Origin: Candidatus Heimdallarchaeum aukensis
GTDB taxonomy: Archaea; Asgardarchaeota; Heimdallarchaeia; Heimdallarchaeales; Heimdallarchaeaceae
Assembly: GCA_021513695.1 (NCBI GenBank)
Contig: CP084166.1
Location: 1,024,001-1,088,000 of the forward strand
DNA: 64,000 bases
Direction: 5' to 3'
Shown here in pieces: positions 2,991-21,702 of the stretch. The notes below the pieces were generated by a model that searched no databases, had not been told where the DNA came from, and was given only the letters and a program-made list of their open reading frames with translations. Each line of letters opens with the position of its first letter. Positions within the stretch are counted from its first letter, which is position 1. Position numbers and translations under genes: made by a program.

Positions 2991-4031
2991 TTATGCTCTT
3001 TCACATTTATTTTTTTCATTATTTTCTACAATACATAGTTCTAGAAGTATATCATACGTTTTTATCATCTCTCTCATAGTTTTTAACATTATTGGGTAAA
3101 GACGCATAATACTATGATTCTTTGTATATTTATAATCTGAATGATAATTAGGATAACGCGAAGCACCAACATGTTTTTCCAAATTCATGCTTAAAATAAC
3201 TATATATGCAAACAGTAGTATAAGATAAAGATAACTTTCTATTTGTACTAACCAATCTTCTTTCTGAATTTGTGTGATAAATTCTTCTCTCAACATTCTT
3301 CGCTCATCAGTTTGCAATTTGATATTATATTCTTGTTCGATTGTTTGAATGACATAGTCTGTTATGCTAATGAACTCTTCTTTCACAATTTTATCAAAAT
3401 TTTCTTTTCTTATGGATTTTATTCCTTTCCTAAATAATGAAAACAGCTTGTTGTATTTAATTAATATTTCCTTTAATGTAGTGTGTTCAAGATACAGAGT
3501 TTCTTCTGATTTCCTTTTTTGCTCATAATCACTCAAATATTTATCAATTGCTTCTATAATGCTTAAAAATCCTTCTCTTTGGTTATCATTAGAATAATCA
3601 GCTAAAGATTCATAGAGATCTTTTAGTTTTTCGAAGAAGAATTTAGTAAAAGTATGTCCAACTTTTATAAGCCGTTCAGTTTGACACAGTCCAGTAAGTA
3701 GAAGTAGTGATTTTCCTAATTTCTCAACAGATTGTTGGAGGAAGAAAATAGACTGTGCATATAGTTTCTTGTGATATAGAATTTTTGAAGCTCTTAAATC
3801 CTCTTCAGCAGTATCTAACAGTCCTAAAGCTGATATTAAATCTCTCTTTTCTGGTGGGATCTCATACTGTGATCCATATTTTAATTGCCATATTAATTGC
3901 CTTTTGATATCTTCTATATCTGTTTCTTGTAATGCAATTTTGTCATTATTATCATTCATTAAATAGCACTGATGGTTAATATTTAAATAATTAATGGCAA
4001 CTATTATCATAATGCAATAAAAATCGAGCAT
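2991..4031 (-). CDS. HEPN-domain protein. The likely true start is the internal Met MNDNNDK near 3959.
   Basis: DLRASKILYHKK carries an Rx6H motif. It is followed by AQSIFFLQQSVEKLGKSLLLL, matching the QxxEKxxK helix typical of HEPN. Confidence 0.5.
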   Translation of the reverse strand: MLDFYCIMIIVAINYLNINHQCYLMNDNNDKIALQETDIEDIKRQLIWQLKYGSQYEIPPEKRDLISALGLLDTAEEDLRASKILYHKKLYAQSIFFLQQSVEKLGKSLLLLTGLCQTERLIKVGHTFTKFFFEKLKDLYESLADYSNDNQREGFLSIIEAIDKYLSDYEQKRKSEETLYLEHTTLKEILIKYNKLFSLFRKGIKSIRKENFDKIVKEEFISITDYVIQTIEQEYNIKLQTDERRMLREEFITQIQKEDWLVQIESYLYLILLFAYIVILSMNLEKHVGASRYPNYHSDYKYTKNHSIMRLYPIMLKTMREMIKTYDILLELCIVENNEKNKCERA

Positions 4032-4183
4032 CTGCTCTTTAAAATGAGAAACTATTTTATATTAAAAACTCTTAATTGGTTTTAAAACATGATAATTAAA
4101 GAAAAAAGAATAATTAAATCCTTCTATTTAACTATAAGGAGGAGTAAATAAACATAAAAAAATTGTGAGTAGAAGGGAAATAT

Positions 4184-5419
4184 ATGTCATTTAATTTTGA
4201 AGTTAAAAATACAATTGCATCCTTAAGGCAATCAAGGTTGAAGCTTGGCAATGTAGAAATAGAAACACCAAATTATATAATGACACATATTGAAACTAGA
4301 CGACTTACTACAGGGTATAATCTTGTTGGGAGTCGTGAGCCTAACCCAAAACTGAATGAATTAATTAGTGATCATATACCTGATAGATTAACTGCACAAA
4401 AAATATTTGAAAACTCCGATGAAATAGAAAAATTATGTAACAAGCTAGATAACTTGACTAAATCTGATCGGATGAATTTTGTTCAATTTCGTTTGAAGGC
4501 TGGAAATGAAATTAGCAAATATGAATTATGTCAAATTGTTAGGTTGCAGTCTGATATGAACAAATTTTCCATTATAACAATACCTGATCCTACTTGTTCA
4601 TATAATAACTCTTGGATTGATTCTATGGAAGCAGCTCTCTATGAGGCTAAGGTTTCACAAGAAGTTGGAACATCGGAACTATTTATGCCTACTGTTTCGC
4701 TTGCTCAGCCTTTATTGGATGTGGAAAAGAAAATTTCGTGGTTAATAGATAAGCAAGTTCCATCCATTGGATTAAGAGCACACGGGCCACATTTTCCAGC
4801 TACTTTGCACAAATCAACAAATCTGATTACACAATCAGATAATCCGATTTGGATTCATCTGTTTGACTTATCCAAAAAATATAAGAATGTGTCCCAACTG
4901 CATTTGGCACCTTTGACAAGTGTTGATACTATTTCCTTGAAAAAAAAACATGGGTATAGCAGCAGCAAGAAAAATATTATGGATGGTTTATTGCCAACAC
5001 CAGAGAATATATCTTTAGAACCAACTGCTAGGGAAATAGAAGAACAAAAGGTCAGAGAGATAAAGCGTAGTCAACGGTTTTTGTTTGAGCAATTAGCTTT
5101 AGGTTACATTTCTATAAATGAGCGGACTAAATGGATTGGTCATGAACTTTCTTGTACTTGTCCCATTTGTAAAAAGACAAAAGATATAGATACCTTTAGG
5201 ATTTATCTCTCAACACATGATAAAAACTCACTTCTACAAGTGCATGAATATACTGGTTTTAACCAGGAAATGTTGGCAATTAGAAAAAATATTAGGGATA
5301 ATGATATCTCAGAGTATTTTAGACAAAAAATATTAGTAAAACGACATAGACGCAAACTATCTAAAAGATATCCTGAGCTTGAAAGGTTTATTAATCCGCC
5401 TTTAGATAGTTACTTCTGA
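4184..5419 (+). CDS. TGT-superfamily transglycosylase (queuine/archaeosine tRNA-ribosyltransferase fold) without a PUA domain. It is a DpdA-like candidate.
   Basis: The N-terminus MSFNFEVKNTIASLRQSRLKLGNVEIETPNYIM matches the TGT start (F.F.i..R.g.l.l..g.ieTP.fMpv). The zinc motif SCTCPICKK...STHDKNSLLQVHEY has the CxCxxC...H pattern. The tail VHEYTGFNQEMLAIRKNIRDNDISEYFRQ parallels bacterial TGT (EHNIAFYQQLMQKIRDSISEGRFSQFAQ). IPDPTCSY and IHLFDLS are candidate equivalents of the catalytic TDSGG and MFDCV segments. Confidence 0.65.
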   Translation: MSFNFEVKNTIASLRQSRLKLGNVEIETPNYIMTHIETRRLTTGYNLVGSREPNPKLNELISDHIPDRLTAQKIFENSDEIEKLCNKLDNLTKSDRMNFVQFRLKAGNEISKYELCQIVRLQSDMNKFSIITIPDPTCSYNNSWIDSMEAALYEAKVSQEVGTSELFMPTVSLAQPLLDVEKKISWLIDKQVPSIGLRAHGPHFPATLHKSTNLITQSDNPIWIHLFDLSKKYKNVSQLHLAPLTSVDTISLKKKHGYSSSKKNIMDGLLPTPENISLEPTAREIEEQKVREIKRSQRFLFEQLALGYISINERTKWIGHELSCTCPICKKTKDIDTFRIYLSTHDKNSLLQVHEYTGFNQEMLAIRKNIRDNDISEYFRQKILVKRHRRKLSKRYPELERFINPPLDSYF

Positions 5420-5447
5420 GATATTTATCCAAGAAAAGGTGATATAA

Positions 5448-6059
5448 ATGAATCAAAAAGCGACAAAAAATATGTCGGAAGAAGAAAATAAAATGATAAA
5501 AAAATGGATCTATTTAATGTTAGCTGCAGATAACAATAGTTCAATCAAAGGAAAAGTTAGAATAACTAAAGAATTCTTTTTGATTACCAAGCAGTTAGCT
5601 CCTGAAGTATTTAAGGCAGCTCAATTCTATCCTTATCACTTTGGGCCTTATAGTACTCGTTTTGCTGTTTGTGTTAACGAACTGATTAAAAGTAATCATA
5701 TTAATATATTGTATAAAAGTGGAGATTATCATTATGAGTTGTCAAAAAAAGGTTTAGTTGAAGCTAAAAAATATTTGAAAACAATCCCTAAGAAAGAAAA
5801 ACAAGTAATTGATGATATTAAGAAAAAAAGTAAGTCTCAATCTTTAAAATCAATGTTAAAAGAAATTTACGAAAAATATCCTAAGTATACAGTTCGTTCT
5901 GTTATTAAAGCAGATCTTGATACTAAAAAAGTAAACTTAGATTCTGTAGAAAAAGTAGATGATAGTTCAGGGTTTGTTTCAAGTGATATGAAACATGAAC
6001 GTGACATCGTCTTGAAAGGTGAAGCTGCAAAAAGATTTCTAGAAATAATCTCAAAGTGA
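5448..6059 (+). CDS. Putative antitoxin partner of the downstream GNAT toxin. It is unusually long at 203 aa and has a DUF1778/TacA-like C-terminal tail.
   Basis: It ends 8 nt before the GNAT gene. Its C-terminal KHERDIVLKGEAAKRFLEIISK resembles the DUF1778 tail (ERD.VLL..EA..RFL..L). A possible winged-helix region lies at the N-terminus. Confidence 0.4.
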   Translation: MNQKATKNMSEEENKMIKKWIYLMLAADNNSSIKGKVRITKEFFLITKQLAPEVFKAAQFYPYHFGPYSTRFAVCVNELIKSNHINILYKSGDYHYELSKKGLVEAKKYLKTIPKKEKQVIDDIKKKSKSQSLKSMLKEIYEKYPKYTVRSVIKADLDTKKVNLDSVEKVDDSSGFVSSDMKHERDIVLKGEAAKRFLEIISK

Positions 6060-6066
6060 TACATCA

Positions 6067-6570
6067 ATGACTAGTCATGAAGTAGAGTATAAAATTGAGA
6101 AACTAAATATATCTCATACTCTATTAGACTTTGATTGTGGTGATGAAAACGTTAATGAGTATTTTAATCAGAGAAGCTATGAAGAAGTTGAATTAGGTAA
6201 TGCTCAAATTTATGTGTTTATACTTGTGAATACAAATGACCTCATAGGTTTCTATACGCTTTCAATGAAATCTGTTCGTTTTAACTATGAAGGAAGAGAA
6301 TATGATCAACCTGTGTGTTTGCTTGGGCAAATTGGAGTAAATAAAATTTTCCAAAATAAAGGTTGGGGAACAATATTAATTAAAGATGCAAAGAAGAGAT
6401 GTAAAAAAATCTCAGAAGATATTGGAAGCATTGGTTTATTATTGGAAACATATAAAGAAGAATTAGTGAACGGGTTTTTCAAGAAACTTGGTTTCGAATA
6501 TGTTGAACATCACAAAATGAAAAACCGAGGTACAAGATATAGATTGTTTTGCAAACATGAACATGAATAG
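6067..6570 (+). CDS. GNAT-family acetyltransferase, TacT/AtaT/KacT-like toxin.
   Basis: HTLLDFDCGDENVNEYFNQRSYEE...DLIGFYTLSMKSV matches the H..FdCG...LN.yL...A...ivGyytL signature of GNAT toxins. The acetyl-CoA loop is QNKGWGT. The protein is 167 aa. Confidence 0.7.
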   Translation: MTSHEVEYKIEKLNISHTLLDFDCGDENVNEYFNQRSYEEVELGNAQIYVFILVNTNDLIGFYTLSMKSVRFNYEGREYDQPVCLLGQIGVNKIFQNKGWGTILIKDAKKRCKKISEDIGSIGLLLETYKEELVNGFFKKLGFEYVEHHKMKNRGTRYRLFCKHEHE

Positions 6571-9500: not shown

Positions 9501-10637
9501 ATGATGGAAATAAACAAAATTTATCTTAAAGATTGTATAGAAGGTATGAAGGAACTTCCTGAAGATAGCATAGATTTAATATTTGCAGATCCACCATATA
9601 ATCTTCAATTGAAAAATGAATTATATCGACCTAATCAGTCATTAGTGGATGCTGTAAATGATGAATGGGATAAATTTTCATCATTTGAAGAGTACGATGA
9701 TTTTACAAAAAAGTGGTTATCAGAATGTAGGAGGGTGTTAAAAAAAACAGGTTCTATATGGGTAATAGGGTCGTATCACAATATATTTAGAATCGGAAAA
9801 ATAATGCAAGATTTAGGTTTCTGGATATTAAATGATATCATTTGGATAAAAACAAACCCTATGCCAAATTTTAGAGGTACTAGATTTAATAATGCACATG
9901 AAACTCTGATTTGGGCTTCGAAAAATGAAAAAGCTAAACCTACTTTTCATTATAAAGCTATGAAGGTATTTAATAATGATAAACAAATGCGAAGTGATTG
10001 GTATATTCCAATTTGTATAGGAAAAGAAAGGTTGAAATTAAACGGAAAAAAATTACATTCTACACAAAAACCTGAAGCATTGCTATATAGAATAATAATA
10101 TCAACATCAAATGTAAATGATATAGTGCTTGATCCTTTTATGGGTTCAGGTACTACAGCTGCAGTAGCAAAGAAACTAAGAAGGAATTTTATTGGTTTTG
10201 AAACAAATGAAATATATGTAAAAGCAGCAAGAGAGAGAGTTGTTAAAGTCATACCCATGGATCCTGACATTTTGGATTATAAAGTGGAAAAAAAACCACC
10301 AAAAGTTCCTTTTGGTACTTTAGTAGAACATAATTATATTAAAGCTGGAGATTGGCTTTATTCAAAAGATATGAGATATAAAGCAATAATAAAAGCAAAT
10401 GGGTCAATTGAATATCAAGGTAAAAACGGTTCTATTCATAAAATTAGTGCTCAAATTTTAAATAAAAAAGCAAATAATGGATGGGATTTTTGGTATGTAA
10501 AAGAAAACGATAATCTTGTATCGATTGATACTATTAGAAGAAATTATGCAAGTAAAAACATGAATTATATGAATGATGAAATAGATATGAGAAATAAAAA
10601 AGTAACAGACAAACTTTTAACTAATTACTTGGAATAA
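9501..10637 (+). CDS. CcrM/M.HinfI-family beta-class N6-adenine DNA methyltransferase (probable GANTC specificity) with the CcrM-type C-terminal domain.
   Basis: Motif IV DLIFADPPYNLQL precedes motif I VLDPFMGSGTTAAVAKKL. Near-colinear matches to Caulobacter CcrM as I recall it include WVIGSYHNIFRIG, LGFWILNDIIWIKTNPMPNFRGTRFNNAHETLIWASK, KQMRSDW, HSTQKPEALLYRII, and C-terminal PKVPFGTLVE...GSIHKISAQIL...NGWDFWYV. Confidence 0.9.
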   Translation: MMEINKIYLKDCIEGMKELPEDSIDLIFADPPYNLQLKNELYRPNQSLVDAVNDEWDKFSSFEEYDDFTKKWLSECRRVLKKTGSIWVIGSYHNIFRIGKIMQDLGFWILNDIIWIKTNPMPNFRGTRFNNAHETLIWASKNEKAKPTFHYKAMKVFNNDKQMRSDWYIPICIGKERLKLNGKKLHSTQKPEALLYRIIISTSNVNDIVLDPFMGSGTTAAVAKKLRRNFIGFETNEIYVKAARERVVKVIPMDPDILDYKVEKKPPKVPFGTLVEHNYIKAGDWLYSKDMRYKAIIKANGSIEYQGKNGSIHKISAQILNKKANNGWDFWYVKENDNLVSIDTIRRNYASKNMNYMNDEIDMRNKKVTDKLLTNYLE

Positions 10638-10642
10638 TCTTC

Positions 10643-11512
10643 GTGCTTACTAATTATCTTCCCTATGAAGTTTTTAAAAGAATATTAACAAAGACAATCT
10701 TTCAAAATGCTAAAATAAGTTTATTAGAAAAAGTTGCTAAATATCCTTCAAGATATACAGGTTTATTTAGGCCTACCAAACCTAAATTAAAATTAATCCA
10801 GAACATTACTCAATCAAATGAAATTCTATTTGGCGATGCTTTTGAGATCATAATTAATGAATATTTGAATAGATTAGGTTTCTCTCCAATTAAAAAAAAT
10901 TATTCCTATAATGGAAATGACTTAATGTTTGATCAGATTGTAGGAAAAGAAAATACTATTATTTACATAGAACAAAAAATAAGAGATGATCATGATTCAA
11001 CAAAAAAAAGAGGTCAAATAGAAAATTTTGAGAAAAAGGGTGAATTATTATTGAAACTATATCCTGATTTCAAAATTACTGGTATAATGTATTTTATAGA
11101 CCCAAATTTAAAGAAAAATCGAAGATATTATATGCAAGAATTACAAAGAATAAGTACTCAATTTAATTTTGAAACTCATCTCTTTTATGGAAAAGAGTTT
11201 TTTGAATGGATAGGAAAAGATGAAATCTGGTTAGAAATAACAAGCTATTTATCAAAGTGGAAAGAAGAGATACCTGATTTTCCCACAATTAATTTTGATG
11301 AAAATCCCGAAGAATCTTTTGAGGAAATCAAGCATCTACAACCTAATTTACTGATAAAGCTTCTAAGAAATGATGCAATATGTAAGGAGATTTTTCCCGA
11401 ATTGTTCCCGGAAAAAACGACATTAAATCTACTTCTGGAATACTATATTCATGAAAGAGAAAAAAATAAGACTAATACAATGGTTATTGAACATTTAAAA
11501 AAAGTGTTGTGA
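10643..11512 (+). CDS. Putative Type II restriction endonuclease cognate to the CcrM-like methyltransferase.
   Basis: GTG start 6 nt after the methyltransferase stop. A candidate PD-(D/E)xK core lies at DLMFDQIVGKENTIIYIEQKIRDD (D...ExK). No other homology recognised. Confidence 0.45.
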   Translation: MLTNYLPYEVFKRILTKTIFQNAKISLLEKVAKYPSRYTGLFRPTKPKLKLIQNITQSNEILFGDAFEIIINEYLNRLGFSPIKKNYSYNGNDLMFDQIVGKENTIIYIEQKIRDDHDSTKKRGQIENFEKKGELLLKLYPDFKITGIMYFIDPNLKKNRRYYMQELQRISTQFNFETHLFYGKEFFEWIGKDEIWLEITSYLSKWKEEIPDFPTINFDENPEESFEEIKHLQPNLLIKLLRNDAICKEIFPELFPEKTTLNLLLEYYIHEREKNKTNTMVIEHLKKVL

Positions 11513-12322: not shown

Positions 12323-13342
12323 TTAATTAGAGCAATATGAAGTTTTATTTGTGAAAATTTCAGGATCATCTAGTTCTCTCAATCTTTTAAGTGTAACACT
12401 TTTCCATTTATCATAAAAATCAACTAAAATACCTTCTTTTTCCTTTAATGTTGGTTTTCCTGTATCATCATCCATAATAAATTCAAATCCGTAATCAATC
12501 TTAAAATTAAATTGATCTGTATGCAAAACTCTTTCATGAGGAAACTTAATATCGTTATCCAAAGATGAACAAAAATTATAATGTCGAACTTCAATATGAA
12601 TTGATGAGTTTGAATATAAACCAAGCCAGTCCATTATATTTTTCTTTGTTGATTGAGGATTATATCTATTTGCTTTCGGTGTTGTAGTACAAATAATAAA
12701 ATTGCCATTTCTTATATTCTCCTTTTCAAATTGTTTTACTAACCAATTTAATGTTTTATAGTGTCGCTTATTATTAACTAAATTTACACCAAGATATCTG
12801 TCCACAATCATTACTTCCTTTGCAAATCTGAATATCTTTTTGATAAATCTTGAATGCACTTCTGTTAAATTATTTAATTCTGCTAAGTTTAATGATGTAT
12901 TCTGTATTTTATTGTAGAAATCTATTTCTGTAATTAATTCCTCTGATACATAGCTACTACTCAATTTTCCAATTTCACACTTATTTCTACAATTATTGTA
13001 AGGAAGTATTATCCAATCTGGATTTTCTCTGCTTTGAATTTCACAATAAGCTATACATTCATCTTTTTTTTTCTTTCCTTCAATTTTAATTTCAATTATT
13101 CTTCTATTATTTTGCATATTCGAAAGCATTTCTTCTATGATGAGTCTTTCTTCTATTGGTATAAGTGAAAGGGTTTTTGATTTAATAGGTAAACTAAAAC
13201 CTTCTGGTTTTAGAAGTATACCGTTTTTTCTAAGGGAAATCAATAAAGAAACTAATATTTTAGAACGATACATAATAAGCGTAGAATTTTCAGAATTGTC
13301 ATCTAAAATTTTAGGAGATAATACAAATGTCTGTACCGTCAT
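12323..13342 (-). CDS. Partner protein of the ABC ATPase, 339 aa. It carries a Cys4 element with a possibly degenerate HNH-like scaffold.
   Basis: Its start overlaps the upstream stop (ATGA, 13339-13342). ECIAYCEIQSRENPDWIILPYNNCRNKCEIGK has Cx3C...DWIILP...Cx3C, reminiscent of the HNH DHIIP/CxxCN arrangement but with W in place of H. Confidence 0.4.
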   Translation of the reverse strand: MTVQTFVLSPKILDDNSENSTLIMYRSKILVSLLISLRKNGILLKPEGFSLPIKSKTLSLIPIEERLIIEEMLSNMQNNRRIIEIKIEGKKKKDECIAYCEIQSRENPDWIILPYNNCRNKCEIGKLSSSYVSEELITEIDFYNKIQNTSLNLAELNNLTEVHSRFIKKIFRFAKEVMIVDRYLGVNLVNNKRHYKTLNWLVKQFEKENIRNGNFIICTTTPKANRYNPQSTKKNIMDWLGLYSNSSIHIEVRHYNFCSSLDNDIKFPHERVLHTDQFNFKIDYGFEFIMDDDTGKPTLKEKEGILVDFYDKWKSVTLKRLRELDDPEIFTNKTSYCSN

Positions 13343-15249
13343 TCAAATAGCTCCTTATAACTTAGATCAAAGAAATCATCTGGCCATTCATTTATAAAAT
13401 TACCATGTTTGTCAAATTCGATAGGAACTATATTAGCTCCTAGTTTTGTTTTTTCAACAAATATAATTGATATAAGTTTTGGACTTATTTTCTTTTTCCT
13501 AATGAGTTTTTTGATTCGTAGAATTAATTGTTGACTATGAGTTTCAATTATAAATTGTTTTGATAAATTCCTTTTAACATGTTCAACAAAAAATTCTCCC
13601 AATTCAGCTTGCAATCTTGGATTAAGATGTATCTCTGGTTGTTCTATTAAAAGAATTTCATTTGGTTTATTTGACATTATCGTTTGTACAAGAATGGGGA
13701 GAACCTGACTCACACCAAATCCAATATCCGGTAATGCCACCGGATATTTTGTGATATTATCTTCGAATTTCAAGGAATATACCCCTGATAGTTTGTCTTT
13801 ATCTGCTGTATATGAGACTGTGTAACCGATTTTTAGTTTTTTCAACCAATTATTTAGTTCATTTATTTTATTTTTATATGAATAGATAAAATCTGCTGTT
13901 TTTGATCCTGAAACACCTACATTAATAGGTCTACTCCCTCCAAATATGTAATATCGAGATGGTTTATCTCTAAGAGGACCAATAAAAGTAATGCTCTTCA
14001 TCAATTCAATGAATTGATTTCTATTCTCTTCAGTCACGTCATAATCAAAATATAAATTCTTTTTTCCATGTTCAAGTTTAAAAAACGTGTTGATTTTAAG
14101 TAATTCACCTTTAATTGGATTACCAACAAATTCAATAGATAAATTATGATGAATAAACTTAATTAATTTGTTAATTAGATCTGTTTCTATCTCCGATGGG
14201 TCTTTAAACATAATAATTCTAAATAATTTCTCAATTTTCATATTAATTGATTCTTCAATTAGAATCCTAAAATCATGATCGATTAAAATATCATCTTTTA
14301 TTTCATTTAAACCAATTTCAACCTTTTTGCAAATTTTTTCAATTATTTTATCTTTTTTTAACAGAAAAAATTTGTTTTTTTCTAATTCTCTTCTAATTTT
14401 TTCTACTATATTTTTAATTTCAATTTTTTTCGCTTGACTATTTTCCTGATAAATTTTCAATATAGTTTCTATAGGAACTTTAATATTAATCGTAGGAATT
14501 TTATCGTTATCAAAATGAATCTTCTTTTCAATTTTTTCTTCTATATCAAAGACATCAATTTTAAATTTCTCTTCATATGCAGAATAAGAGATTATAAATG
14601 GTGTATCAATGTTTTCAACAATTGTGATTTTCTTGTATCCTCCAGATATTGACTCTCTCAAAAACGGTAAAAGAATCATCGGTATAACTCTTTCTGTACT
14701 TATTTTTGAAAGAGAACAAGTATATTTTATCCGCTGATAAATCCTAGAATTTTCTGTTTTGCAATATACTAATTTTGCTGAAATTAATGATTTTTCAATC
14801 TTTTTGCCATAATTTCTAGATATTCCCCATATTATTTTATCTAAAAGAATGTAAGGTCTCTCTTCAATCTTTTTTGAAATGTATGTTAAGTTGATTTTGA
14901 ATTTTTTAAAAATCCTTTCCTTGTATGGTGAAATATGAAGATAATCTGAGGATCGCCACTGTAACCCAATTTCAACTCTTTTTCTAGTATCATGACCAAA
15001 AACAATTTCTTCGAAAGGTCCAATATCAACATAAGTCCCTTGATGTAGAAGAACATTATTTGGGTCATTGTCTTCTATAGTTTGTTTTAAGGCTAAAAGT
15101 GATTTCAAAATAGATGATTTTCCACTACTATTTTCTCCAAATATCAGTGTAATCGGTTTACATGGTATTCTAGAGCCCTTTTTTCCAAAGGCTTTAAAAT
15201 TTCTTAAATAAATTTCAGTTAACATGAACAAACACCAAGTTTCTTTCAT
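13339..15249 (-). CDS. ABC/OLD-type ATPase of the AAA_15/AAA_21 kind, similar to the ATPases of Septu PtuA, PARIS AriA and AbiL.
   Basis: N-terminal LTEIYLRNFKAF...ITLIFGENSSGKSSILKSL is the Walker A. C-terminal ILLIEQPEIHLNPRLQ is the Walker B/D-loop, and FIIETHSQQLI is the H-loop. A long insert separates the two halves. Confidence 0.8.
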   Translation of the reverse strand: MKETWCLFMLTEIYLRNFKAFGKKGSRIPCKPITLIFGENSSGKSSILKSLLALKQTIEDNDPNNVLLHQGTYVDIGPFEEIVFGHDTRKRVEIGLQWRSSDYLHISPYKERIFKKFKINLTYISKKIEERPYILLDKIIWGISRNYGKKIEKSLISAKLVYCKTENSRIYQRIKYTCSLSKISTERVIPMILLPFLRESISGGYKKITIVENIDTPFIISYSAYEEKFKIDVFDIEEKIEKKIHFDNDKIPTINIKVPIETILKIYQENSQAKKIEIKNIVEKIRRELEKNKFFLLKKDKIIEKICKKVEIGLNEIKDDILIDHDFRILIEESINMKIEKLFRIIMFKDPSEIETDLINKLIKFIHHNLSIEFVGNPIKGELLKINTFFKLEHGKKNLYFDYDVTEENRNQFIELMKSITFIGPLRDKPSRYYIFGGSRPINVGVSGSKTADFIYSYKNKINELNNWLKKLKIGYTVSYTADKDKLSGVYSLKFEDNITKYPVALPDIGFGVSQVLPILVQTIMSNKPNEILLIEQPEIHLNPRLQAELGEFFVEHVKRNLSKQFIIETHSQQLILRIKKLIRKKKISPKLISIIFVEKTKLGANIVPIEFDKHGNFINEWPDDFFDLSYKELFE

Positions 15250-15317: not shown

Positions 15318-18300
15318 TTAATTTTCACTAAGATATTTTATTATTTTAGGAAGTAGGAAAACATTTTTTCTTAATGTTGAAAAACTTAATGCTTCTCCTA
15401 GAAGTGTGTGAACTTGTTTAGGTATTTTTCCAAACATTGGATGACTAACTACATATCCATAGGTAAATGATTTGAAATTCCCACTTTCTATTATTACACG
15501 CATTGGCTCTTCCAACAAGCTCATATCACCAAAGTAAATGCTTGATAATGGTGATGATAATGCTCTTAAACGTTCAATAGTTGCTTTTTCAATATCTTCA
15601 CTCAAAAAAATATCACTATCTTCTATTATATCAAGAGTTATTAATAAATATGAATCACCAGCAAATATAATTGGTGGACTTAAAAGTTTACTAAATTTTT
15701 TTGCTAATGAAAATGCATTATTTGTTGAGTTGATAAAATGATATAAGCTTGGATATTTTCTACTTTTTTCATCTTTTTTTACATTTCTTCCATAATAAGT
15801 TCTGACCATCTTTTCTAAGTAGTTTAATCCTTTATTTATTGTGTATAAGTTTCGAGGTTTTTCCAGATAATTAAGTATTTCTTGTTTATCTGTTTTGTCA
15901 TAAGCTTTTACTGTTACACGAAAACCTTTTGCTATTTGTTGATTAGTGACTTTATAGAATAGATAAGAAGGTATCGTCATATCATTCCATCTACCTGCTT
16001 CATTAAATGTAAGTATAAATTCAGGAGAGGGATATAATCTGAAATGGTTTAATGCTGTTTTTATAGATGGAAAATAATTTTTCAAAAAATCATCTAAATA
16101 GATATTATCAACTGAAAATGCTCTTTTACTAACTCTTCCAAATAGACTGAATTTTCTTTTAGTTCTTTCCGAAATCTTGCTTCTGCTAAAAACTGGTAGG
16201 ACATGTTCATTATTGTTGATTAGTATATCTCTAATAAAACTTCTTAACTGATGAAATTTGATATTTTGATCTTTTAGAGTGGCATTTTTGTTCAAAGCAG
16301 AAATCATAGACACTAATCTTGGCTTCAAATCTGTTTCTTCTCCTCTCATCCTTTTAATTACTTGCCTAAAATATTCTAGATTGATCATAGAATCGAAATA
16401 AGTTGTTGAGCCATAGTCTGTTTTTAAGGGGAAAGGAGGAAGGATAATTAAAATTTCATGCCATGAATATGTAGTTCCAAATGCTAATGAAGAGGTTCCT
16501 ACTATATTTTTTTTAGGTGTTTCTTCTATTAATAATGTGTCACGAGAATCGTGAGTAATAGAAACTGCATCATAATTGTTTAAATGGAGGTATTCTACTA
16601 ATGAATCTACAAACTGTTTATTGTTAACATAAAAAATTACTTTACCCTCTTGTAAATATTTTTCAAATGATTTTTTTCTATTGTCAATTCGTGATTTTTT
16701 TACAAGCTTGTCTAATATTTCAAAAATTTTTTTAAAATTTATTTCCTCTTCATATTTACCCTCACAAATAAATGATGCTGCACAATAATCAATATTGAAA
16801 TTTAAGAGATATCTCAGAAAAATACCTTTAATCGGAGTATTAATTATTTTAAATTCCTCTGGTTCTTGAATGTCTTCATTAAAATTAGTTATTTGAAATT
16901 GTGTCATCCATTTTTTTGAATTTGGATCAACTAATGTGTTCAACATGGAAATTACTAATTTCATACTTGTGATAGATGCATCAGTAATTACAAAGCGAGG
17001 AACATTTATGTTATTATTTACCATTAATCGATTCCTTGCTTCTATTAGTAAATCAATAAAATTTTTTGCAACTGTTGGTCCAGAATTAGTTAATTCATCA
17101 AAGATGAACATATATGTCTTTGTGAATAGTAATTTCCAATTGTATGATTGTTTTAGAAAATAATCTAAAGCTTGGGAAGATACTAATATAACTTTTTGTC
17201 CTTGTTTCTCTAGTGCTTTTTTCAATCGATTTCCTGTTTCACTGAAAATTGTTTCATACCCCTTAAGTGTTATTGGATCTCTTATTAACTCTTTTTCTCT
17301 TTTACCAATAATTAATTCTAAATGGACATTTTTTTCTATATCATTTTTGATTAATCTTTGAATTTTATCTTTAGTTTGTATTAAGGTTGTAATTCTTGGA
17401 CAGAAATACAGAATAGTAAAGTTTTTTTTAGTTTTTGCAAGCTTTTTAATATAATTTGCAATCACATAATTTTTTCCAACACCTTGAGATGAACCATTTA
17501 TTATTATATTATAACAATCATTGGTTAATAATTTTAGGAAGTTCTTCTCATGTTCTTTTCTTACATTTTCTATTTCGTTTCTAGTAACACTCTGTCTTTT
17601 TACGATAGAAGGTTGAATCTTCTCTTTAGTTTCAGGATAAGCTTCAATAAATTCTGTTTTTTCATCCTTCAAAATTATTTTTAACTCCTCTCCTCTAGTT
17701 CCTTCAAAAAAATACATTCTTTTATTGTTTTTTTCTTTTATTCTCATCGATATTTTTCCACTCATAAATAATTCAAAAATTCGTCTTCTTTCAAAATCTT
17801 CCAATATATATTCTTTCTTTTTACCAAATTCTGTTTCCACTATAGTACTAGGAATCAAGTTACATAGAAATCGTAATATTTTCCTTAAATCGGTTTCAGA
17901 TTTAATATGAAAAGAAGATATAGCTCCAGGTAAAACTATTTGAACTTCAATCTCACTGTTATAATTTTGAGTTTCGTTATAATATAATTGTGCATAGGAG
18001 AATACTTTTAAGTATTTCTGGAGAGCTGTTGCAATTCTGTAAAAATCTCTTGCAGGAATCTTTTTGTTCTTATGTAAATTTAGTTTTCTTAGTTTTTCCT
18101 TTGAAAAATCTTCGACAATTAATTGTTCAATATAATCTTGAAGTAATCGCTCTTTCGTCATATTTACAAAAAATATATATGATTTAATATCGCCAATACA
18201 TAAGAACTCGATTTGGTTCATTTCATAATTAAAGGCTTCCTCTTGATTGTTAGATGTTTTCTTTCTAATGATTATAAAATCAGGTTTTTTTTCCCTAAAT

Positions 18301-18779
18301 GTTGGTTCTATAAATATTTCTAATTCTGTATCTGGTTTTTTCCATTCAAGATTTGCATTTAGTAATACCGATATTGAACATTGAAATCCTGTTTTTATCA
18401 TTCTTAAGGCTGTATATCCCACTTTTTGTTCTTCCAAAATATCTGTGATTTCTCTTTCATCAATCTTTAAGTCTGTTCTAAACATTTGCCTTTTTTGAAA
18501 ATAATTTTTAAATATTAAGTACGAATCTGTGATGCTTGATTTTCTGATAAATAAATCGATTGCTTGTTCTATCTGTATTCCAATTACATTTTCAAGATAT
18601 GAATTCAACTCTATTCTATTTTCAATATCTAAAATAGGTGGTTCAATTCTTATGCCTACAAAAGGTTTAATGTTGTAGCATTTTGATTTTGACGCAATTC
18701 CAAGAAAGAATCCAAATTCAAGTGCTTCTCCATATATTAATGGTGCTATTCTATTAATTTTCTTTTCGTAATTTACCAT
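15318..18779 (-). CDS. Large (1153 aa) P-loop NTPase or helicase-like protein with a possible N-terminal PD-(D/E)xK nuclease fold.
   Basis: Central Walker A IIINGSSQGVGKNYVIANY, Walker B-like YMFIFDELTNSG, and a possible motif III at VITDASIT. The N-terminus has ELEIFIEP...KKPDFIIIRKK...EFLCIGDIKSY (E..PD...DxK-like). Its start lies 1 nt after the stop of the upstream 973-aa gene. Confidence 0.55.
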   Translation of the reverse strand: MVNYEKKINRIAPLIYGEALEFGFFLGIASKSKCYNIKPFVGIRIEPPILDIENRIELNSYLENVIGIQIEQAIDLFIRKSSITDSYLIFKNYFQKRQMFRTDLKIDEREITDILEEQKVGYTALRMIKTGFQCSISVLLNANLEWKKPDTELEIFIEPTFREKKPDFIIIRKKTSNNQEEAFNYEMNQIEFLCIGDIKSYIFFVNMTKERLLQDYIEQLIVEDFSKEKLRKLNLHKNKKIPARDFYRIATALQKYLKVFSYAQLYYNETQNYNSEIEVQIVLPGAISSFHIKSETDLRKILRFLCNLIPSTIVETEFGKKKEYILEDFERRRIFELFMSGKISMRIKEKNNKRMYFFEGTRGEELKIILKDEKTEFIEAYPETKEKIQPSIVKRQSVTRNEIENVRKEHEKNFLKLLTNDCYNIIINGSSQGVGKNYVIANYIKKLAKTKKNFTILYFCPRITTLIQTKDKIQRLIKNDIEKNVHLELIIGKREKELIRDPITLKGYETIFSETGNRLKKALEKQGQKVILVSSQALDYFLKQSYNWKLLFTKTYMFIFDELTNSGPTVAKNFIDLLIEARNRLMVNNNINVPRFVITDASITSMKLVISMLNTLVDPNSKKWMTQFQITNFNEDIQEPEEFKIINTPIKGIFLRYLLNFNIDYCAASFICEGKYEEEINFKKIFEILDKLVKKSRIDNRKKSFEKYLQEGKVIFYVNNKQFVDSLVEYLHLNNYDAVSITHDSRDTLLIEETPKKNIVGTSSLAFGTTYSWHEILIILPPFPLKTDYGSTTYFDSMINLEYFRQVIKRMRGEETDLKPRLVSMISALNKNATLKDQNIKFHQLRSFIRDILINNNEHVLPVFSRSKISERTKRKFSLFGRVSKRAFSVDNIYLDDFLKNYFPSIKTALNHFRLYPSPEFILTFNEAGRWNDMTIPSYLFYKVTNQQIAKGFRVTVKAYDKTDKQEILNYLEKPRNLYTINKGLNYLEKMVRTYYGRNVKKDEKSRKYPSLYHFINSTNNAFSLAKKFSKLLSPPIIFAGDSYLLITLDIIEDSDIFLSEDIEKATIERLRALSSPLSSIYFGDMSLLEEPMRVIIESGNFKSFTYGYVVSHPMFGKIPKQVHTLLGEALSFSTLRKNVFLLPKIIKYLSEN

Positions 18780-18780
18780 T

Positions 18781-21702
18781 TTATATCAACTTCTCCTGAA
18801 TTTTTATTCTGTTTATCCCTTTGATGAAAATACTTGGATCTAGCAACTTTTTGGAATCAGGATATGGTAGATGAAATAACCTTTTTAAACTTTCAATACT
18901 AATTCCGCCTTTTTCATCTCCGTAAATGGTTAATATTCTTGAGAATTCTTTCAAATAAGAAATAGTTTCTTCAGACGATCTTTCATATGGTATTACAGTA
19001 AAAATAAGAGACGGTTGTAAATCTTTTTTAATTTCACCCTCAAGCTTTTCTTCTCTTCTCGAACCAAAAATCAACATTCCAACTATTTTTCTCTTATCTC
19101 TTCCATTATATTTCAAAGGTTCATTAATATATATAATTAATTGTCTATTTGATTTTGACTTTGGCAGTAATTTTCCAATTTCTCTTGAAGGAGTAAAAAT
19201 AGCTTTTTCATTAAAAACAAACAATGGAATTTTTAATTGTTTATTCTTTTCAAATATCCAGTCAATAATGGTATCTTCTTTACTAAGATCACTATCTTGT
19301 ATTTTTCTATTTACAGATTCAGATATAATGTCATAAGTGCTCTCCGTTCTTGAACTATGTTTAGCTCTTATTAAAATTAGAATATCTTCTTTTGCTAATT
19401 CTGATACTATTAGTGAGGCTAATTCAAAATTTATATCGCATCCTATGTTTCCAAATGAATCTTCTATAAAGTTTTCCTCCATTACATTAATTTCTCGTTC
19501 ATCAGTTAGGTGAGCATAAGCTGCGATATTTCTTATGTATCTTTGTTCTTCTTTAATTATTTCGACCCATTTTTCTGATGAAAGAGAAAGTAATAATATA
19601 TCTTTTGTTTTTATTAATTTATCAAGAGCTTTATCATGTAGAGTATATCCCGCTGTAGAAGTATTTTTTAAGGAGTGTGAAGTAAAATACCATTCATCCA
19701 TAAATAATCTTCCAAAAGCTTTATTTATATTATGATAATTTGATAAAAACTTGTACAAATAGATACCAGGTAAAGCAATTTTTTTCTCTTTGGAAGCTGT
19801 TTGATAAGTAAATAATTCTACTTTACCTATGTTATCAAAAGTATAAAATGAAAAAGGTCCATCGAAGTATTTTAAGATTTGATTTTTTGACCATACTACA
19901 TTCCCGTTTTTTCTAATACCATCTTTTGTCATCATTTGAACATTAATACGTCTTCTTGACCTATTGATTGTACTTTTATTTTGCCAGATTTTCTTTATTA
20001 TTTGCCTAATCTCTTTTTCTTTATATTCTTTTGATAAAGAATCAAAAGAAAAGCCTTGAGAATATTCGAAATATTTTGTTTCCCATGAGTGTACTCCTTT
20101 TAATAACATATAATAAAATTCATGAAAAAGACTTCTTTTTACTTTCTTCGATAAATATGGGATAAACCAAATGTTATCTCCTCCTTTTACAAATCTAAAT
20201 TCATGATTAAGCCTTGTTAAAGATTGTTTAATATCAGGGTCATTAATTAGGTATAGTATTGCACTATCTATAACTGCCTTTAAAGATGCAAAAAATCTAT
20301 AATTGTCGTTGTTTAGTCTTTCTCTCAAATCTGTATTAATTCTTTTGTGATATATTTCAATTTCTTCTGGAAAAAATTCAGTATTTGCTATAAGATAAGT
20401 GATAAATTCTTGTAATCCATATTCTTTATCTCCATACCAGATAGATGTTTTATTTTTTTCATCAATTCCTTCATTCTTTTTTAAATAAATATTTTCATGA
20501 ATAAAAACTATCAATCTTTTTGGATTTATTTGTTTGGGAGAGATGTTTATCTTTTGAATTCTTTCTAATTTCTCTTTTTTTGCGCATAAGTAATGATCAA
20601 ATTCTGGAAATTCACAATTTTCAACAATTTCCTTTAGTTTATCAAATAATTCTTCAAAATCTTTATAACTTATTTCGTTAAAACCTAAAAGTATTGAAAA
20701 AGCGAATAATTTATCTTTAATATCTTCAACCATTTCTAAGAATTCTTGGTCATTTGTATCCATTTGTTCCATTATCCATTCTTGAAGGTTAATGAGTAAA
20801 GGCAAGATTGTTTTTTCTTTATTCCAGCCTTCTCCATATATTCTGAAACAATAAAGGTTTTTATCATAATCTTCATGAAGATTAAGAAATTTTGGGCAGC
20901 TTCCTACAGAGATTAATCCAGGAAAAGAAGGAAATGACATACCTTTGAAACTATGATTTATTATTTTCTCAAACAGAGTTTTCTCTTCAGCTGATAATTT
21001 TTTAATAAATTTATCATTCTTAAGTAAGACGGTACATTCTTTCTTAAAATCTAAATATCTGTCGTATGCAGCATTACGAACTTCTTCATTTCTAATGTAT
21101 TTTATATAATATTTTACTAATTTTTTCTGAACTGGATTATTAATAATGTTTGAAAATTGCTCTGTAGCTTTAATGGAAACTTCTTCTGCTTTTAAAGCTG
21201 TTTTAAAAAATGAAATTGGAATCTCATTTTCATGAATTTTCTCATTTGCGTTTCTAAATCTTGATTCATTTTCTTGAATTTCAATATAAGAAAAAGTAGA
21301 ACCAACTTCTTCTGATTTCCATTCATCTCGCTTTGCTTTATCCCATAATGTTGCTGGATTTTCATACTTTTTTTCTTTTTTCATTAACTCTTCTTTAATT
21401 GTGATTATAACTTTGTCGCTTATCTCTAATAATGTAGTATTAGGACTTTGGACAATTCTAGATTTTAGCTTTTTCACCAGTAACCAATTTTGTAACGAGG
21501 GATCAGATATTTCATTAATTTCTTCTAATGTATTTTGATACGCTTTGTGAACTATTCTACAAAAATCATCAAAGGGATATGTTATAGTACAAAGCATATC
21601 AAAGAATTTTTTATCCTGAATATATTCTGAAATTAATTTTGAGAAGAATATAGACCAAAATTCTTTATCTATTCCTTCTGTTAGTTTTACTAATCTAGCC
21701 AC
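18781..21702 (-). CDS. Large (973 aa) hypothetical protein, first gene of the four-gene operon.
   Basis: Uninterrupted ORF with no P-loop and no motif recognised by eye. It is preceded by a 670-bp AT-rich promoter region. Confidence 0.5.
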   Translation of the reverse strand: MARLVKLTEGIDKEFWSIFFSKLISEYIQDKKFFDMLCTITYPFDDFCRIVHKAYQNTLEEINEISDPSLQNWLLVKKLKSRIVQSPNTTLLEISDKVIITIKEELMKKEKKYENPATLWDKAKRDEWKSEEVGSTFSYIEIQENESRFRNANEKIHENEIPISFFKTALKAEEVSIKATEQFSNIINNPVQKKLVKYYIKYIRNEEVRNAAYDRYLDFKKECTVLLKNDKFIKKLSAEEKTLFEKIINHSFKGMSFPSFPGLISVGSCPKFLNLHEDYDKNLYCFRIYGEGWNKEKTILPLLINLQEWIMEQMDTNDQEFLEMVEDIKDKLFAFSILLGFNEISYKDFEELFDKLKEIVENCEFPEFDHYLCAKKEKLERIQKINISPKQINPKRLIVFIHENIYLKKNEGIDEKNKTSIWYGDKEYGLQEFITYLIANTEFFPEEIEIYHKRINTDLRERLNNDNYRFFASLKAVIDSAILYLINDPDIKQSLTRLNHEFRFVKGGDNIWFIPYLSKKVKRSLFHEFYYMLLKGVHSWETKYFEYSQGFSFDSLSKEYKEKEIRQIIKKIWQNKSTINRSRRRINVQMMTKDGIRKNGNVVWSKNQILKYFDGPFSFYTFDNIGKVELFTYQTASKEKKIALPGIYLYKFLSNYHNINKAFGRLFMDEWYFTSHSLKNTSTAGYTLHDKALDKLIKTKDILLLSLSSEKWVEIIKEEQRYIRNIAAYAHLTDEREINVMEENFIEDSFGNIGCDINFELASLIVSELAKEDILILIRAKHSSRTESTYDIISESVNRKIQDSDLSKEDTIIDWIFEKNKQLKIPLFVFNEKAIFTPSREIGKLLPKSKSNRQLIIYINEPLKYNGRDKRKIVGMLIFGSRREEKLEGEIKKDLQPSLIFTVIPYERSSEETISYLKEFSRILTIYGDEKGGISIESLKRLFHLPYPDSKKLLDPSIFIKGINRIKIQEKLI

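Follow-up and report, generated by a model that had tools for sequence, protein, structure and literature searches.

A three-gene module of Asgard archaea linking a putative Panacea-type antitoxin and GNAT toxin to a divergent TGT-like gene

Analysis of a 64,000-nucleotide (nt) stretch of the genome of Candidatus Heimdallarchaeum aukensis (contig CP084166.1, positions 1,024,001 to 1,088,000; here called the window) revealed three genes in an operon-like arrangement on the plus strand, at positions 4184 to 6570. They encode a protein related to tRNA-guanine transglycosylases (TGT), a protein of 203 amino acids (aa), and an acetyltransferase of the GNAT family. In our assessment, this is probably an Asgard three-gene module in a defense island, with a Panacea-type antitoxin and a GNAT toxin encoded by the last two genes and a TGT-like protein encoded by the first. 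The DUF4065-GNAT pairing itself is already published and validated (VcaA-VcaT; Bikmetov et al. 2022), and we regard the pair as an archaeal variant of this known family of Panacea-type/GNAT toxin-antitoxin systems, with an antitoxin that may employ a terminal clamp like that of DUF1778. Two observations are new: the pair is linked in an essentially obligate manner to a TGT-like gene in the Asgard lineage, at essentially every related locus whose sequence extends far enough, and the catalytic residue of the GNAT is polymorphic between Tyr and Phe, with Phe in H. aukensis.

All three open reading frames (ORFs; Table 1) are intact in the window. An earlier note on this DNA, drawn up from the sequence alone, had described the last two as a GNAT toxin with an atypically long upstream partner; both ORFs exist, and all motifs quoted there are present, including LDFDCGDENVNEYF and LIGFYTLS of the GNAT. 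The conserved TGT-like gene in front of them had been overlooked. According to the ORF listing of the window, the 203-aa gene and the GNAT gene run in the same direction with a spacer of 7 nt, and a Shine-Dalgarno-like element, GGTGAT, lies 6 nt 5' of the ATG at 5448. The sequence of the 203-aa protein is that of UJG41676.1 of H. aukensis; the protein of Candidatus H. endolithica deviates from it in one residue, and the GNAT sequence is filed under accessions of both Heimdallarchaeum genomes. No operator could be called in the upstream region (4032 to 4183), where the inverted repeats are AT-rich low-complexity matches, and a scan for sigma-70 promoters and terminators gave the same counts as shuffled sequences, the sigma-70 model not being applicable to archaea.

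On contigs of sufficient length, homologs of the 203-aa protein are preceded by a gene of 394 to 411 aa and followed by a GNAT of 156 to 174 aa (three-gene loci counted: the window, L001, L004, L005, L008, L010, L011, L022, L023, and L024). Intergenic gaps within these loci range from -7 to +29 nt, including overlaps of 4 and 7 nt, and the gap between the antitoxin and GNAT genes is -4 to +10 nt in nine of the ten fetched loci; an apparent 89-nt gap in L024 results from a mis-called GNAT start. The genes flanking the module vary between loci. When the search was started at the first gene and directed outward, the identical triad was recovered in three of three loci. In 17 further metagenome loci from JGI, the first gene was found in 13 of the 14 whose upstream sequence exceeds 240 nt, and the GNAT in 12 of the 14 whose downstream sequence is 97 nt or longer (exceptions, L030 and L042).

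A few loci deviate from this order. L042 (JGI Ga0209536_100302864) is the sole metagenome locus with ample upstream sequence yet no TGT-like gene; its match to the 203-aa family spans residues 43 to 103 only and may represent a fragment or a remoter relative. A two-gene version was found in L017 (ENA ERZ27249683, positions 704 to 1832), where a 204-aa homolog and a 164-aa GNAT, without a TGT-like gene, lie beside a phage-type integrase. This is a more distant relative, with an antitoxin tail devoid of both motifs described below and a GNAT devoid of the F-D-C-G-D motif. As the tail and the N-terminal motif of the GNAT are both divergent in this locus, it hints that tail and toxin may co-vary. 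In L016 (ENA ERZ25073868, positions 3001 to 4362), two tandem paralogs of the 203-aa protein, 206 and 205 aa long, have both tail motifs, with no GNAT or TGT-like gene nearby and with two weak SocA_Panacea genes on the flanks; these paralogs could be orphan antitoxins or belong to an island rich in antitoxins.

The 167-aa protein scored above the Pfam cut-offs for both Acetyltransf_1 and Acetyltransf_7 and matched the acetyltransferase family PHROG 1758 at 4e-28. A phmmer search against all PDB sequences yielded 15 matches with E values from 8.8e-17 to 4.7e-6, every one of the TacT/TacT2/TacT3/KacT/AtaT type (7f37 [8.8e-17], 6g96 [2.5e-14], 7f36, 7ak8, 5fvj [1.3e-12], 7ak7, 9ilr, 5xun [2.1e-9], 5zgn, 6gts, 6gtq, 6gtp, 6ajn [4.1e-7], 6ajm, and 7chd), followed by the first other GNAT at an E value of 0.13. 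Judged by sequence, the protein is closer to the characterized TacT/AtaT/KacT toxins than to other GNATs, in agreement with the earlier note. Relatives were detected by tblastn on 1329 plasmid records, and in three of three inspected plasmid regions the annotated GNAT directly follows a DUF1778 gene of 88 to 95 aa. Measured against these partners, a length of 203 aa is indeed atypical. The F-D-C-G-D...N-x-Y-F motif, the IGFY strand, and the Q-x-x-G-x-G motif align with wild-type bacterial plasmid toxins, and Q-x-x-G-x-G/A is retained in 18 of 20 orthologs from three-gene modules, the remaining two having SGKGWG (L022) and QGNKMG (L024). A basic loop of six residues (RRNxPD or KKYPST), present in the three aligned bacterial toxins, is missing from the archaeal GNATs around residues 74 to 81, and tRNA recognition may therefore differ.

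In the same alignment, the bacterial toxins carry F-Y or Y-Y in front of the G-F motif, whereas the window protein has F137-F138, which puts Phe in the place of the catalytic Tyr (TacT Y140, KacT Y145, AtaT Y144). The register was checked with PDB chain 7f36_A, which has FF where its natural plasmid homolog L013 has FY, as expected of an engineered, non-toxic Y-to-F mutant made for crystallization. Across 20 GNATs of three-gene modules, the position is occupied by Tyr in 14 and by Phe in 6 (the window, L001, L008, L011, L024, and L036); the latter belong to several sub-lineages and are otherwise well conserved. Exchange of this residue abolishes the toxicity of TacT (Y140F; PMC4942678) and lowers that of AtaT (Y144F; PMC7595197), and the H. 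aukensis copy of the toxin is thus probably attenuated. The earlier note had named a lack of toxicity as an outcome that would speak against it, and it overlooked this residue. Nine residues before position 138, all 20 GNATs share Tyr129 in a clade-specific E-T-Y-K motif; it is missing from the aligned bacterial toxins and from L017. One may speculate that Tyr129 is a candidate to compensate for the lost catalytic Tyr.

The AlphaFold2 model of the 203-aa protein, built on a 19-sequence alignment, has a pLDDT (predicted local distance difference test) of 82.8 and consists of a globular part (residues 10 to 150, above 90), a disordered stretch (about 155 to 186), and a terminal helix (192 to 202). 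The earlier note was right in expecting an extra domain, which is globular. Its further suggestion, a DUF1778 protein with an N-terminal addition, was not borne out, as the model contains a winged helix similar to Panacea and the C-terminal domain (CTD) of DarG and no ribbon-helix-helix, and the DUF1778 Pfam model matched neither the protein itself (E ≤ 1) nor any of 19 family members (E ≤ 10). The best structural match of the model is a toxin-binding domain and not a DNA-binding protein, and the protein has the fold of the DarG C-terminal/Panacea toxin-binding domain. Its UniRef name is "Antitoxin SocA-like Panacea domain-containing protein," PADLOC assigned it to PDC-M19A (1.3e-14) and to the C-terminal half of DarG (2.6e-4), and PHROG 24871 matched at 1e-12. 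Pfam PF13274 (Panacea) gave no match to the window protein and, short of the gathering threshold, was hit by 3 of 19 family members (best E value, 0.022). Searching 1.8 billion representative proteins with a profile of the globular domain returned 2094 relatives, mostly stand-alone versions of 145 to 170 aa, and only about 18 of them reach the match strength of the full-length family (E ≤ 1e-30). Pfam searches with 109 relatives gave DUF4364 (20), SocA_Panacea (13; best E value, 1e-4), the UPF0175 antitoxin family (10), and PadR (8). Compared with PDB sequences by phmmer, the 203-aa protein had a chance match only (E = 1), and a scan of IMG/VR with the family gave no matches. A published report describes DUF4065/Panacea proteins as homologs of the toxin-binding C-terminal domain of DarG (PMC13621843). 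Taken together, database matches, fold, and relatives assign the globular domain to the Panacea/DarG-CTD winged-helix group, as a diverged representative outside current Pfam thresholds. Identity with the PADLOC candidate system PDC-M19 was rejected because the antitoxin domain alone matches, while the GNAT and the TGT-like protein match nothing in PADLOC; no literature on PDC-M19 was found.

The C-terminal 35 residues of the 203-aa protein contain two conserved segments, (I/V)DDxxGFV and the terminal L-K-x-E-A-A-K-R-F-L-E-x-I-S. In the former, D171 and D172 never vary and the conservation of G175, F176, and V177 is 90% or higher, although residues 171 to 186 have pLDDT values below 50; such conservation without predicted structure suggests a partner-binding motif. 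For the terminal segment, the proposed resemblance to the toxin-binding tail of DUF1778 holds in part. Compared with an alignment of six DUF1778 sequences from plasmid and viral loci, residues 182 to 201 (KHERDIVLKGEAAKRFLEII) were placed by hhalign on DUF1778 positions 47 to 66 (betaB-alphaC) with a score of 15.7 (P = 0.012; probability, 3.7%) and in register (IVLKGEAAKRFLEII versus, for example, MVVSPEAYSNFLERL). Column-shuffled tails had a mean score of 8.8 (standard deviation, 1.7), and 1 of 300 reached the observed value. In KacA, betaB-alphaC forms a parallel sheet and a hydrophobic, high-affinity contact with KacT, and the alphaD part packs along the toxin (PMC6698736). The archaeal tail provides a counterpart for about 20 of the about 40 residues of this toxin-binding region, as the protein stops before the P-x-x-P linker and alphaD. 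The likeness to DUF1778 thus appears short and weak, yet above what composition alone would give. All three-gene loci retain the tail, whereas it has diverged in L017 with its two genes. With its weak but above-chance tail match, the idea of a re-engineered antitoxin put forward in the earlier note seems partly right, although antitoxin exchange as such is already published (DUF4065-GNAT, PMC9177977; Phd-C, PMC10440598).

The first gene belongs to a family with consistently weak similarity to TGT enzymes. It scored 16.6 bits against Pfam PF01702 (cut-off, 26.3), a model that was found in seven of eight family members, always below threshold (best, 1.7e-4). Against the NCBIfam model of archaeal tgtA, a value of 6e-5 was obtained, and the arcTGT score was 21.6 (cut-off, 350). 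The family profile had no match in the PDB other than archaeosine tRNA-guanine transglycosylase (E = 0.002), for which the N-terminal motif and the zinc ligands both aligned. C324, C326, C329, and H354 are invariant and correspond to C279, C281, C284, and H307 of ArcTGT (C-x-C-x-x-C...H zinc site). A global hhalign comparison with Escherichia coli Tgt gave no alignment; a permissive local one gave a collinear match over 326 columns of low confidence (P = 0.009), in which the invariant Asp135 of a P-D-P motif pairs with the base-recognizing Asp143 (Ec D143) and catalytic Ec D89 and D264 (Zymomonas mobilis D102 and D280) have no conserved equivalents. As this match came from the permissive local alignment alone, conclusions on the catalytic aspartates are weak at the residue level. 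The structure model is likewise of low confidence (pLDDT, 59.7), with an insertion of about 50 low-confidence residues (231 to 280). These similarities point to a strongly diverged, possibly non-canonical member of the TGT superfamily, and our favored conjecture is that it serves as an accessory or sensor subunit that binds tRNA or protein, and not as a canonical base-exchange enzyme. A genome scan of GTDB with the TGT-like family returned the H. endolithica chromosome alone; its search patterns were narrow, and the result is not an estimate of distribution. The literature searched contained no paper in which a TGT-like gene was associated with a toxin module of the DUF4065 or GNAT kind.

The substrates of TGT enzymes are tRNA or DNA. 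In type IV cyclic oligonucleotide-based antiphage signaling systems (CBASS), the TGT-family protein Cap10 has been repurposed for defense and binds the modified N terminus of a partner protein (bioRxiv 10.1101/2025.04.06.647259). Against this background, a functional link between a TGT-like protein and a tRNA-targeting toxin would be a new route of toxin control or targeting. Like ArcTGT, bacterial Tgt, DpdA, and Cap10, the first gene product has the N-terminal motif, the zinc site, and perhaps a beta/alpha barrel core, and its size is similar to that of Tgt and DpdA. Unlike members of the superfamily, it has sub-threshold hidden Markov model scores throughout, no PUA or C-terminal tRNA-binding domains, and no demonstrably conserved catalytic Asp pair.

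Among known systems, the pair most resembles the one described by Bikmetov et al. (2022), who identified a clade of true toxin GNATs ("clade C") paired with DUF4065 proteins and not with DUF1778; VcaT of Varibaculum cambriense is toxic, is neutralized by VcaA, and acetylates mainly Gly-tRNA (PMC9177977). In comparison with the published description, the archaeal locus shares a GNAT of the TacT/AtaT family, a Panacea-type partner instead of DUF1778, the antitoxin gene in first position of the pair, and tight spacing. It differs in its Asgard host, in an antitoxin domain below the Pfam DUF4065 threshold, in a conserved C-terminal extension of about 50 residues, in the TGT-like third gene, and in the catalytic Tyr/Phe polymorphism. 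With the GNAT-DUF1778 type II systems TacAT, KacAT, AtaRT, and ItaRT, it has in common the toxin family (E values down to 9e-17) and a tail strand and amphipathic helix similar to betaB-alphaC. In contrast to these systems, the partner of 203 aa (versus about 90 aa) lacks the ribbon-helix-helix, alphaD, and the P-x-x-P linker, and the GNAT lacks the six-residue basic loop (RRNxPD) of the toxins aligned. Ernits et al. (2023) found that a Panacea antitoxin neutralizes Doc via two C-terminal helices analogous to Phd, and they proposed the Panacea domain itself as a sensor (PMC10440598). The archaeal protein resembles this PanA architecture (Panacea plus Phd-C) in combining a globular Panacea-type domain with a short C-terminal element reminiscent of the classical antitoxin tail of its toxin; here, the toxin is a GNAT and not Doc, and neutralization through the tail is inferred. 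DarG, known from its C-terminal domain (PDB 7YK3) in DarTG of Mycobacterium tuberculosis, differs by its macrodomain and by an ADP-ribosyltransferase instead of a GNAT as the toxin. Searches of the literature for Asgard with GNAT, or for Heimdallarchaeum with toxin-antitoxin, found nothing.

From these similarities, a working model can be proposed. By homology, the GNAT, descended from aminoacyl-tRNA-acetylating toxins, would transfer acetyl groups to the amino group of charged tRNA and thereby block translation, and the 203-aa protein would be its antitoxin. The latter would grip the toxin via its conserved tail, that is, through the disordered linker with DDxxGFV and the following strand and helix resembling the betaB-alphaC clamp of DUF1778. 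The DarG-CTD/Panacea-like winged helix could serve as a scaffold, a sensor, or a second contact, in line with proposals made for multidomain PanA antitoxins. A Panacea-like domain followed by a linker and a tail like that of a classical antitoxin fits the model of Ernits et al., and by analogy this is the most likely mechanism of neutralization. The TGT-like protein, with an intact zinc site and without clearly conserved catalytic aspartates, would accompany the pair as its obligate partner in this lineage. The analysis shows the order of the genes and how well it is conserved, the families to which they are related, the antitoxin fold, and the Tyr/Phe polymorphism, whereas we infer toxicity, neutralization via the tail, and any role of the TGT-like protein.

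Several alternatives were weighed against a Panacea-type toxin-antitoxin pair. Descent of the 203-aa protein from a true DUF1778/TacA-type antitoxin that gained an N-terminal domain and neutralizes like TacA, KacA, and AtaR would account for the in-register tail alignment and its score relative to shuffled tails, but the match is too short to separate descent from convergence, and the protein ends where DUF1778 goes on with the P-x-x-P linker and alphaD. Considering also the missing DUF1778 Pfam matches in 19 members and the missing ribbon-helix-helix, we regard this as very improbable. It is unlikely, too, that the module has nothing to do with toxins and that the 203-aa protein acts as a PadR/winged-helix transcription factor for an operon of two nucleic-acid- or tRNA-modifying enzymes, TGT-like and GNAT, in a joint, non-toxic modification pathway: the GNAT is nearest specifically to toxin GNATs and not to housekeeping ones, the best structural match of its partner is a toxin-binding domain, the conserved disordered tail is typical of antitoxins, and the module occurs in defense islands, beside integrases, and with variable flanking genes.

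More weight is due to the activity of the toxin and to the first gene. Phe138, which recurs in five other lineages and corresponds to exchanges that abolish or reduce toxicity in TacT and AtaT, could mean that the H. aukensis module is a decaying or domesticated remnant with a catalytically dead GNAT, no longer forming a toxin-antitoxin pair. We consider this doubtful, as the three ORFs are intact, the GNAT is listed for both Heimdallarchaeum genomes with 203-aa proteins one residue apart, all other GNAT motifs are kept, and the occurrence of Phe in otherwise well-conserved orthologs argues for tolerated variation and not for decay; invariant Tyr129 could compensate as well. A somewhat better, still tentative case can be made for an obligately tripartite Asgard defense system, in which a remodeled, possibly non-catalytic TGT-like protein, maybe altered in the manner of Cap10, works with the GNAT tRNA-acetylating toxin and the Panacea/DarG-like antitoxin. 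The TGT-like protein could then be a tRNA- or trigger-sensing subunit controlling toxin release, a subunit recruiting tRNA or protein, or a second effector checked by the same antitoxin via the second tail motif. Near-universal linkage with overlapping genes, a zinc site conserved without clear equivalents of Ec D89 and D264, two separate tail motifs that could serve two partners, the Cap10 precedent, and the location in a defense island are in favor of such a system. The two-gene locus L017, the lack of an adjacent QueC-like or other 7-deazaguanine gene, the low-confidence TGT-like model, and the weak Tgt alignment count against it.

A toxin-antitoxin pair of the Panacea-type/GNAT family, the reading we prefer, would carry the validated DUF4065-GNAT pairing over to Asgard archaea; to our knowledge, work on GNAT toxins and Panacea antitoxins has so far dealt almost entirely with bacteria. 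It would also provide a second natural example, after Panacea plus Phd-C, of a Panacea-type domain with an apparently borrowed neutralizing tail, supporting the modular "linear neutralization" model. The recurrent natural Tyr-to-Phe change offers a ready comparison of Tyr- and Phe-bearing orthologs for the importance of this residue outside enterobacterial toxins. A tripartite system, if true, would be a new architecture in which a tRNA-modification scaffold is coupled to toxin control.

Table 1. Features of the three-gene module and neighboring genes, in window coordinates
Feature	Position	Strand	Basis or remark
Divergent TGT-superfamily (tRNA-guanine-transglycosylase-like) gene, 411 aa, first in module	4184..5419	+	
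Candidate antitoxin gene, 203 aa	5448..6059	+	ATG ORF; Panacea/DarG-CTD-like winged-helix domain and C-terminal tail
Globular winged-helix domain, residues ~10-150, with invariant FYPYHFGPYST motif	5475..5897	+	AlphaFold2, pLDDT >90
(I/V)DDxxGFV motif, residues 171-177, in linker predicted to be disordered	5958..5978	+	Family conservation
C-terminal tail ERDIVLKGEAAKRFLEIISK, residues 184-203, putative toxin-binding strand and helix	5997..6056	+	AlphaFold2 helix 192-202; hhalign to DUF1778
GNAT gene, 167 aa, TacT/AtaT/KacT toxin type	6067..6570	+	ATG ORF
Acetyl-CoA-binding motif QNKGWG (Q-x-x-G-x-G), GNAT residues 96-101	6352..6369	+	Read from sequence
Clade-specific E-T-Y-K motif, GNAT residues 127-130	6445-6456	+	
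Codon TTC, Phe138, at catalytic Tyr position	6478..6480	+	Alignment with plasmid toxins
HEPN-domain protein, 346 aa, N-terminal HEPN	2991-4031	-	Pfam 1.5e-7; upstream of and divergent from module
Type II N6/N4 DNA methylase with RAMA domain	9501-10637	+	PADLOC MTase_II 1e-171
Type II restriction endonuclease, starting 5 nt after methylase	10643-11512	+	7e-76
NsnB/AriA-like AAA_15/AAA_21 ABC (ATP-binding cassette)-type ATPase, 636 aa, C-terminal DUF3696	13339-15249	-	PADLOC NsnB 1.6e-58, HEC-03B, AriA
ResIII helicase-like protein, 1153 aa	15318-18779	-	ResIII helicase motif

The module is located in a defense island (Table 1), and integrases flank it in L004 and L017. No tRNA gene was found by ARAGORN within the 64-kb window, and no MNT-type partner was seen next to the HEPN-domain protein. 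The stop of the 636-aa ATPase gene is overlapped by a 339-aa gene without a family match; the two genes (12323 to 15249, minus strand) look like a two-gene defense system with an ATPase of the Nhi/PARIS/Gabija-like class. Beyond them, the 1153-aa gene and an adjacent 973-aa gene without a Pfam or PADLOC match (15318 to 21702, minus strand) extend the apparent defense island.

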